From sequence record PQ249395: a DNA stretch of 64,000 nucleotides, one strand, 5' to 3'. The notes under the pieces are model-generated. The model was given only the letters and a program-made list of their open reading frames with translations, had not been told where the DNA came from and made no database searches. Position 1 is the first letter of the stretch. Each line of letters starts with the position of its first letter. Shown one piece after another: positions 8,952 to 9,731 of this stretch. This stretch comes from Escherichia phage Pu-Krd-SF1. The translations under genes and the position numbers were made by a program.

Positions 8952-9731
8952 TTATACTCTTGGACCATATATTGCTCCAACGTTTTGCCATGTCGGTGTA
9001 GACCCTATGACGGCATAACCAGCAGCACCACCGTTATATTCTGTACCGTTCCCATGAATATTACATCTACCTCCTGCTGAGCCAACTTCACCGCCATTCC
9101 CGCCTGTATATACCCAAAGAGACCCCTCACCAGCAGATCCTGCACCCGGAGCGGAAATGGAGCCAGCAGTTGCACCAGAACTCATATGAGAGGAAGACCC
9201 GCCAGCACCGAATGGGCGACCACCACCACCACCAAATGATAGTCTACCGTAGTTACCGCCGCCGCCGCCGCCGCCACCGCCTGCAATAGCTCCGCCATTA
9301 TTAATTCTTAGTCTCCCACCAATATCATTTTGAATACAATGACCCCCAGCTGAGCCAGGACTATTGCTACCGCCATTACCGCCACGTCCATACATCGTTA
9401 CGCCGTGTATATTCAACTGAACATATTCATTCGGTGTATCTCCGTACATGAAGAATAAAGGAACATCTTTAGAATATGATACTAAATCTCCAGTGATATT
9501 AAACACTATAGGTGCACTACCTGCCTCAAAACATCTATCTCGGAACCATTGACCATTGAAGTTATGGTCTGCTCCAAGTGTATGAATAATTTCTCTTGAG
9601 CGACCTGCAAATTGACTCATCCAGCAAGGAACACCCAATCTTAATTGACCAGCTGCTTGACTCATCCAGCGCTGACCCGTTTCATTTACGGCTGAACTTC
9701 CAATCCAGCCAGGAACTCCAACTACTGCCAT
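8952..9731 (-). CDS. 38: gp38 receptor-recognising adhesin, T2/T6 type (259 aa, glycine-rich motifs)
   Basis: ORF directly downstream of gene 37 with poly-Gly runs and conserved Trp/Cys-containing flanks; T4-type gp38 is a 183-aa chaperone instead. Confidence 0.8.
9256..9279 (-). repeat. (CCG)n trinucleotide run encoding poly-Gly in gp38
   Basis: CCGCCGCCGCCGCCGCCGCCACCGCC on + strand = GGC repeats in gene 38 reading frame. Confidence 0.8.

Follow-up and report, generated by a model that had tools for sequence, protein, structure and literature searches.

The stretch of DNA analyzed here (the window, 64,000 nucleotides (nt) from Escherichia phage Pu-Krd-SF1, record PQ249395) includes the distal long-tail-fibre module of a T2/T6-type Tequatrovirus, encoded on the minus strand. 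Its gene 38 (8952..9731, minus strand) encodes gp38, the receptor-recognising adhesin of 259 amino acids (aa) at the tip of the T2/T6-type long tail fibre, and this adhesin contains a run of nine consecutive glycines, Gly151-Gly159, encoded at 9255..9281 on the minus strand. Taken together, the analyses presented below make it likely that the run, which is the poly-Gly part of the second glycine-rich motif (GRM2), serves as a structural scaffold equivalent to helix 3 of the polyglycine II (PGII) lattice, that it is, at the DNA level, a local hot spot of mutation, and that its length is held by selection. A preliminary description of the window had proposed that the same codons are a built-in mechanism for varying the length of the adhesin.

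The identity of gp38 was established from the list of open reading frames (ORFs), Pfam and PDB matches. Pfam assigns to it the domains GP38 (PF05268, 1.1e-69, 235 bits) and Gp38_N (PF21721, 1e-20, 73.8 bits), the cut-off being 25 in both cases, and the PDB matches are 9v85, the gp38 of phage PP01 (8e-79), and 6f45_D, the gp38 of phage S16 (2e-52). At the DNA level, gene 38 and the gp38 gene of phage IME340 are 98.5% identical. No relatives were found in a scan that covered 185,579 bacterial and archaeal genomes. This adhesin is the principal determinant of host range in T2/T6-type phages and a target in the engineering of therapeutic phages.

Codon composition of the glycine run

According to the codon table, the run is an in-frame tandem array in which GGC accounts for 7/9 codons, the second and the ninth being GGT. 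The perfect (GGC)6 core of the run occupies 9258..9275 on the minus strand, as given by both a regular-expression scan and Tandem Repeats Finder, and in plus-strand register the same repeat is read as (CCG)6 at 9256..9273. Tandem Repeats Finder reports the array at 9256..9281, with period 3, 8.7 copies and 91% matches. The preliminary description had placed an in-frame array of six or more GGC codons at 9256-9279, where the plus-strand letters are CCGCCGCCGCCGCCGCCGCCACCG. Both the frame and the tandem nature of the array are borne out by the codon table, its ends agree with those of the run to within 2-3 bases, and the count corresponds to six perfect GGC codons, or seven among the nine.

The run is followed in the gene by the second hypervariable segment (HVS2; 9234..9254, minus strand; codon table), which comprises residues 160-166 and forms the distal loop B, the numbering being derived via Q167/M168 of T6 (PMC3157838). 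HVS2 lies between both Gly runs, given that Gly167-171 (9219..9233, minus strand) constitute a second run, encoded by a perfect (GGT)5 according to the codon table and Tandem Repeats Finder. In the Trojet nomenclature, the poly-Gly of GRM2 is thus followed by HVS2 (NYGRLSF) and then by GRM3 (GGGGGRPFG), which the second run starts. Apart from run 1 and the (GGT)5, which follows it in the gene after 21 nt, the 64 kb contain no perfect trinucleotide repeat of four or more units.

Glycine codon usage in the other window ORFs of at least 150 aa is GGT 45%, GGA 35%, GGC 15% and GGG 6%. Given that GGC represents only 15% of Gly codons, six of them in succession are beyond chance relative to genome usage, with a probability of about 1e-5 per position. 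Among relatives, the third bases of the run are distributed as C 124, T 76, A 16 and G 2, in 25 distinct patterns, and the longest pure codon stretch varies from 1 to 8. Since the family spans this whole range and nearly all of its run codons are GGC or GGT, a pure stretch of six is ordinary for the motif. GGA is nearly absent from the interior of the run, compared with the 35% it reaches in the other window ORFs. The (GGC)6 pattern is also found in phages Pu-Krd-SF5 and Pu-Krd-SF6, and other close relatives break it with GGT at varying positions. As for the length that slippage would act on, the run offers six perfect 3-nt units, or 8.7 imperfect ones, and we know of no accepted slip threshold for trinucleotide repeats in T4-like replication.

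The two runs of the window clade differ in their codons (9219..9281), with mostly GGC in run 1 and exclusively GGT in run 2, unlike most other lineages, in which both runs contain a mixture of GGC and GGT (L039-L053). Hence, the window runs share almost no DNA identity, and their differing codons minimise the identity between the direct repeats that flank HVS2. In two GenBank records, a repeat region is annotated over these Gly codons of gene 38, namely in those of kvi (MN850615; L051 552-577) and vB_Eco_TB34 (OX001802; H68), the latter with the label '3.1 copies of ACCGCCGCC', obtained via Tandem Repeats Finder. No special mRNA structure was found at the run, whose fold is no better than that of shuffles (z = 0.19), and no plus-strand ORF of at least 60 aa was found across gene 38. 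A phage tRNA-Gly was considered as the reason for the codon choice and rejected, since the window contains no tRNA genes.

Structural role of the run in gp38

In the phmmer alignment, gp38 residues 151-158 fall on S16 residues 151-GGGGGGGG-158. These S16 residues make up helix 3. It is the long glycine-rich motif at the centre of a three-layer PGII lattice and has a saturating hydrogen-bond network with the neighbouring helices, and the hypervariable segments of S16 gp38 are its distal receptor-binding loops (PMC6851490). PP01 gp38 shares the fold of S16 gp38, and loop-B was defined in that structure (PMC12892980).

The AlphaFold2 model of the window gp38, obtained with 56 homologues, has a mean predicted local distance difference test score (pLDDT) of 90.2, and residues 151-160 have a mean of 97. 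The top Foldseek matches of the model are again 9v85 and 6f45_D, with a template modelling (TM) score of 0.87 and a root-mean-square deviation of 2.0 Å over 222 columns for 9V85. DSSP assigns residues 151-158 of the model to 'other' only. When the 56 diverse homologues are aligned, gp38 is seen to alternate conserved glycine-rich motifs with hypervariable segments. The invariant columns cluster at G115-G120, at G153-G156 within run 1, where G152 and G157 are conserved in at least 90%, and at G167-G171 and P173, which include the whole of run 2.

Besides being homologous to the gp38 proteins of S16 (PDB 6F45) and PP01 (PDB 9V85) and having the same predicted fold, the window protein has the same flanks around the run (NNGGxIx before it, HVS2 and GGGGGRPFG after it), and its gene likewise lies between g37 and t. 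It differs from both in having nine Gly instead of eight, the ninth sitting at the position of F159 or Y159. The HVS2 of the window is short, with 7 residues, and the total length from the start of the run to GRM3 is the same as in S16 (9+7 vs 8+8).

As judged from the alignment and the model, Gly151-159 is the poly-Gly part of GRM2 and the equivalent of PGII helix 3 of the polyglycine sandwich. The preliminary description had regarded it as a Gly linker between variable segments; it is instead predicted to be a rigid, ordered core element of the fold and not a flexible linker. The glycine backbone would form hydrogen bonds to the adjoining PGII helices and so provide a rigid scaffold for the receptor-binding loops, and HVS2/loop B, which comes after the run, would contact the outer-membrane receptor. 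In phage T6, no viable phage without GRM2, GRM3 or GRM4 was recovered among 220 progeny screened (PMC3157838), and the related adhesins of NRGRLVF type (FL12 and FL20) depend on OmpA (PMC12032242).

Length and codon turnover among relatives

The comparison covered 372 gp38 proteins (cluster representatives and members) and about 50 DNA copies, taken from phage records in GenBank as well as from viral and metagenomic records. The canonical arrangement of nine Gly, HVS2 and five Gly is present in 230 of the 238 distinct proteins of nine-Gly types, and the other eight consist of seven shorter runs (8, 7, 7, 7, 6, 6 and 4 Gly) and one HVS2 duplication. Nine codons are kept in the window, in its 13 full-length closest genes and in Pu-Krd-SF6. 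Run purity and run length are uncoupled: nine codons are found whether the longest pure stretch is 1 (kvi, with (GGT GGC)4 GGT), 2 (BF15, ST2 and UKE3-1, with (GGC GGC GGT)3), 3, 4, 5, 6 (the window and Pu-Krd-SF6) or 8 (FL12). Where other gp38 types have 7 or 8 Gly, this results from substitutions at either end (A or S in the first position; A, I, Y or W in the last), and the helix is not shortened. Given these canonical counts, the nine codons in the closest genes, the end substitutions and the non-viable GRM deletions of T6, the length of the run appears to be under strong purifying selection, and selection on folding would be what holds it.

Three sets of candidate length variants were rejected. 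The 257-aa members of the window protein cluster are not contractions by 2 Gly, as their N-terminus differs and nine Gly are kept. Similarly, CMS-2020a, whose BLAST span is 3 nt shorter, has nine Gly and differs elsewhere, and C2-3 and REP2, with spans of +1 or -1 nt, have an intact gp38 with nine Gly, their insertions and deletions (indels) being intergenic.

Length variants at the run were nevertheless found in plaque-forming isolates. Twelve Gly are present in Yersinia phage PYps14T (L066, MT526905) and in E. coli phage AV121 (L067, OR352951), encoded by four 9-nt units (GGC GGC GGT three times and then GGC GGC GGA), compared with three 9-nt units in canonical T6-like genes, such as that of C2-3. 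The codon structure of the 12-Gly allele is identical in these independent isolates, which come from Germany and Denmark. Phage PYps32T (L061 551-586) has the same gain of 9 nt, with one GGC changed to GTC, which gives G10-V-G. Slipped-strand mispairing classically yields such a gain of a single repeat unit. A PGII helix has three residues per turn; the additional three Gly would amount to one turn, which may explain why the 12-Gly allele is tolerated, and helix 3 would be one turn longer. Indels in gp38 are mentioned, without analysis, in the paper on the Yersinia pseudotuberculosis phages (PMC8762354).

Other small changes were observed in related adhesins. In the gp38 of PYps55T (L058, MT515756, 6168-6977), GGQ is tandemly duplicated within GRM1 (GRGGQGGQGGW) and one additional Ser stands right after an eight-Gly run, and the gp38 of PYps35T (L057 5997-6782) has lost four residues (QYGN) from the loop after the run; both are further small in-frame indels in viable adhesins. 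Gene 38 of HP3.2 (L056, OP978391, 101-872), a product of 'in vitro directed evolution', has lost 11 nt near codon 50, which puts the N-terminal attachment domain out of frame with the rest; the record annotates the downstream part only. The annotated protein of the original HP3 (P0222) has a frameshift inside the poly-Gly run, where HP3.1 and HP3.2 have nine Gly in frame. Both of these frame changes may be either real or due to sequencing errors.

Exchange between the two runs is also seen among relatives. HVS2 (YYSPFSQMRLTF) is tandemly duplicated in the gp38 of PYps47T (L055, MT515755, 61-897; 278 aa) and in that of a ZN18-like contig (L001, IMG/VR, 167,948 bp, 601-1434; 277 aa). The middle Gly run of these duplications has 6 codons in PYps47T and 5 in the ZN18-like contig, and is a hybrid that begins as run 2 and ends as run 1, in each phage's own codons. 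Reciprocal deletions of HVS2, in which run 1 is fused directly to RPFG, were found in four assemblies: L059 (1201-1917), L060 (1060-1785), P0022 and P0031. One of these alleles lies in an intact g37-g38-t context, and that of L060 has a premature stop and is called as two ORFs. The junctions of these exchanges lie inside Gly-coding motifs in the relatives, and none was observed in the window. GRMs have been proposed as recombinational hot spots for modular shuffling (PMC12032242; PMC3157838), an idea that the run-to-run exchanges fit. The HVS2 copies are identical within each phage and different between PYps47T and the ZN18-like phage, a pattern suggestive of either two recent events or homogenisation. 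Yersinia pseudotuberculosis was the isolation host in both cases.

Synonymous changes are concentrated in the run. Outside the run, the genes of IME340 and LYE-01 match at 753/753 bases, yet 3/9 of the run codons differ between them; at a uniform rate, the chance of three differences all falling within these 27 nt is approximately (27/780)^3 = 4e-5. Across seven phylogenetically separate sister pairs, 16/63 run sites changed, compared with 118/933 of the other four-fold sites (Fisher p = 0.007), and in four close pairs the values are 9/36 and 20/543, respectively (odds ratio 8.7, p = 2e-5). The third-base patterns of the run also show more periodicity (3, 6 and 9 nt) than composition-matched shuffles, as 10 of 5000 shuffles reach the observed value when shared ancestry is left uncorrected. 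An excess over sites that are presumably near-neutral points to a higher local mutation input and not to relaxed selection. The simplest reading would be repeated slippage or unequal exchange in the array, with selection restoring nine codons.

Explanations of the run and related systems

The explanation we regard as probable combines these results: a PGII helix 3 scaffold whose DNA is a local hot spot and whose length is held by selection. Since practically no codons other than GGC and GGT are used for the nine Gly, the DNA would inevitably form a short tandem array whose period is 3, 6 or 9 nt. Such an array would act as a local hot spot, through slippage inside it and through unequal exchange with run 2, which lies 21 nt away. 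Nearly all length variants would be removed by selection on the fold, leaving third-base reshuffling at a constant nine codons to accumulate, and slippage would be the presumed cause of the synonymous turnover. The (GGC)6 of the window would then be one transient state of this turnover rather than a dedicated device. On rare occasions a whole 9-nt unit would be gained, adding three Gly, i.e., one PGII turn, with the phage surviving.

Several points weigh against this explanation. The seven contraction alleles all come from metagenome or whole-genome shotgun (WGS) assemblies, without a named isolate. The synonymous excess rests on few related sequences, and the periodicity test ignores their shared ancestry. 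The same pattern could arise without slippage if co-infecting phages recombined over short patches, or if a GC-rich repeat was misassembled. Furthermore, the PGII conformation of residues 151-159 is, for this protein, one that we infer from homologous sequences and the predicted model. Finally, viable isolates with 12 Gly indicate that the constraint on length is not absolute, and some adaptive use of length is conceivable.

Adaptive use is the core of the proposal that the pure (GGC)n tract is a built-in, contingency-like device for in-frame slippage, in which the length of the Gly stretch repositions the receptor loop and so varies host range. We consider this very unlikely. It is favoured by the isolates that vary at exactly the run site (12 Gly in PYps14T and AV121; G10-V-G in PYps32T), by the clean extra repeat unit of the 12-Gly gain, and by an array that mutates faster than the rest of gene 38. 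Three residues, being one PGII turn, could push loop B outward with the lattice register intact, and 3/4 of the variant isolates belong to the Yersinia pseudotuberculosis phage set with gp38 indels (PMC8762354), although that set lacks a matched nine-Gly control and run length is not tied to host range. The canonical length in 230/238 proteins and in all closest relatives, including FL12 with its purer (GGC)8, speaks against such a device, as does the uncoupling of purity and length. Contractions occur in assemblies only, one HVS2-deletion allele also having a stop codon, and GRM deletions in T6 are non-viable (PMC3157838). In addition, a preprint on contingency loci in T2, T4 and T6, which scored only homopolymers of at least 6 bp, finds such repeats under-represented in phage tail-fibre genes (10.1101/2025.10.21.683753). 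A stricter version would make the run a quantised length dial, in which slippage by 9 nt toggles helix 3 between 9 and 12 residues with the lattice kept in register, moves loop B about 9 Å outward and retunes receptor or host range, e.g., toward Yersinia; the fast third-base turnover would then be the trace of repeated loss and regain. To this version, too, we attach little credence. Regarding the preliminary description, the comparison of related phages that it recommended did reveal length variation. Its view that the run is prone to slippage in multiples of 3 is consistent with the 12-Gly, G10-V-G and contraction alleles and with the fast synonymous turnover, yet the length is nearly always nine, and a built-in mechanism for adhesin length variation is speculation in view of the canonical counts and the T6 deletions.

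A different role would have the Gly-coding runs act chiefly as microhomology patches, at which recombination shuffles, duplicates and deletes hypervariable segments, the third-base scrambling being a footprint of exchange during co-infection. This we take as a serious possibility, if not the one we would expect. Shuffling at GRM hot spots has been proposed in the literature cited above, and both the HVS2 duplications with a hybrid middle run (PYps47T and the ZN18-like contig) and the reciprocal HVS2 deletions (L059, L060, P0022 and P0031) are the kind of event it calls for. However, the window runs, almost without shared identity, are a poor substrate; run-to-run exchange leaves unexplained the gain of exactly one 9-nt unit inside run 1; and changes confined to the run in otherwise identical genes are likewise unexplained, unless the donors had identical flanks. 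A microhomology role is compatible with the structural explanation, and the two may coexist. It is also conceivable, but unlikely, that there is nothing special in the DNA, purity being a chance product of a two-codon alphabet and the synonymous excess and length variants being noise or sequencing or assembly error. With C at about 57% of the third bases in the run, several per cent of genes should have a pure stretch of six among the nine codons. The assembly origin of all contraction alleles, the HP3 frameshift, maybe a sequencing error, and the unremarkable RNA fold of the run agree with this. Against it stand the three differences within 27 nt in genes with 753 identical positions elsewhere (about 4e-5), the 12-Gly allele with identical codons from Germany and Denmark, and the near exclusion of GGA from the run interior.

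The motif itself is the well-described and already known GRM2/PGII helix 3, with which it agrees in every respect that can be tested. The details added here are modest: a fast synonymous turnover at fixed length, alleles that gain a unit from 9 to 12 Gly, and hybrid junctions between runs. The model of GRM shuffling (Tetart, Desplats and Krisch 1998; Trojet 2011) likewise has conserved GRMs flanking hypervariable segments, and the exchange junctions of the relatives lie in Gly-coding runs; it involves homologous exchange between phages, whereas the gp38 events found here are intramolecular or unequal (a unit gain in one run and exchange from run to run).

Simple-sequence contingency loci are similar in that a short slippage-prone tandem repeat lies in a host-recognition gene. 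An example is provided by Campylobacter phages, whose receptor-binding genes have poly-G tracts that are homopolymers of the contingency type. Such tracts slip out of frame and switch the gene on and off at high frequency, whereas the gp38 run has a unit of 3 or 9 nt, keeps the frame and is nearly invariant in length. Polymorphism in repeat number, which is expected at contingency loci, is weak here: none is seen in the closest genes or Pu-Krd-SF6, and among the nine-Gly types more widely it amounts to twelve-residue alleles in 3 isolates, together with 7 contractions among the 238 proteins. As Tetart et al. reportedly found in 1996, the host range of T4 can be expanded by duplications of a small adhesin domain of gp37. 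In gp38, this corresponds to the HVS2 duplication seen in PYps47T and ZN18, a short adhesin segment between conserved repeats being duplicated in viable phages in both cases; T4 gp37 is a trimeric tip with a host-range effect shown, and gp38 is monomeric with a different fold.

For engineering, the poly-Gly run would be a load-bearing PGII helix at nine residues, and the loops, perhaps together with extensions by whole turns, would be the parts that tolerate change. Pure GGC or GGT arrays may also make synthetic genes unstable. Should run length indeed tune receptor reach, this would be a new and simple route of host-range evolution, and the length dial, if real, would be an in-frame, structure-matched contingency locus in a phage adhesin.

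The neighbours of gene 38 are in accordance with its assignment. Upstream lies gene 37 (9768..13007, minus strand), an ORF with Peptidase_S74 and Gp34_trimer domains in Pfam that encodes the distal long-tail-fibre subunit, and downstream lies gene t (8265..8921, minus strand), the holin (Phage_holin_T, 1.9e-117). The order 37-38-t, all on the minus strand, is that of the T2/T6 type and is the same in annotated relatives. The C-terminal Peptidase_S74 domain of gp37, an intramolecular chaperone, spans residues 963-1021. In the spacer between genes 37 and 38 (9732..9767), a G5/C5 inverted repeat (minus strand AAGGGGGAAATGCCCCCTTTGGAGTATAAATTATG) closely precedes the Shine-Dalgarno sequence and the start codon of gene 38.

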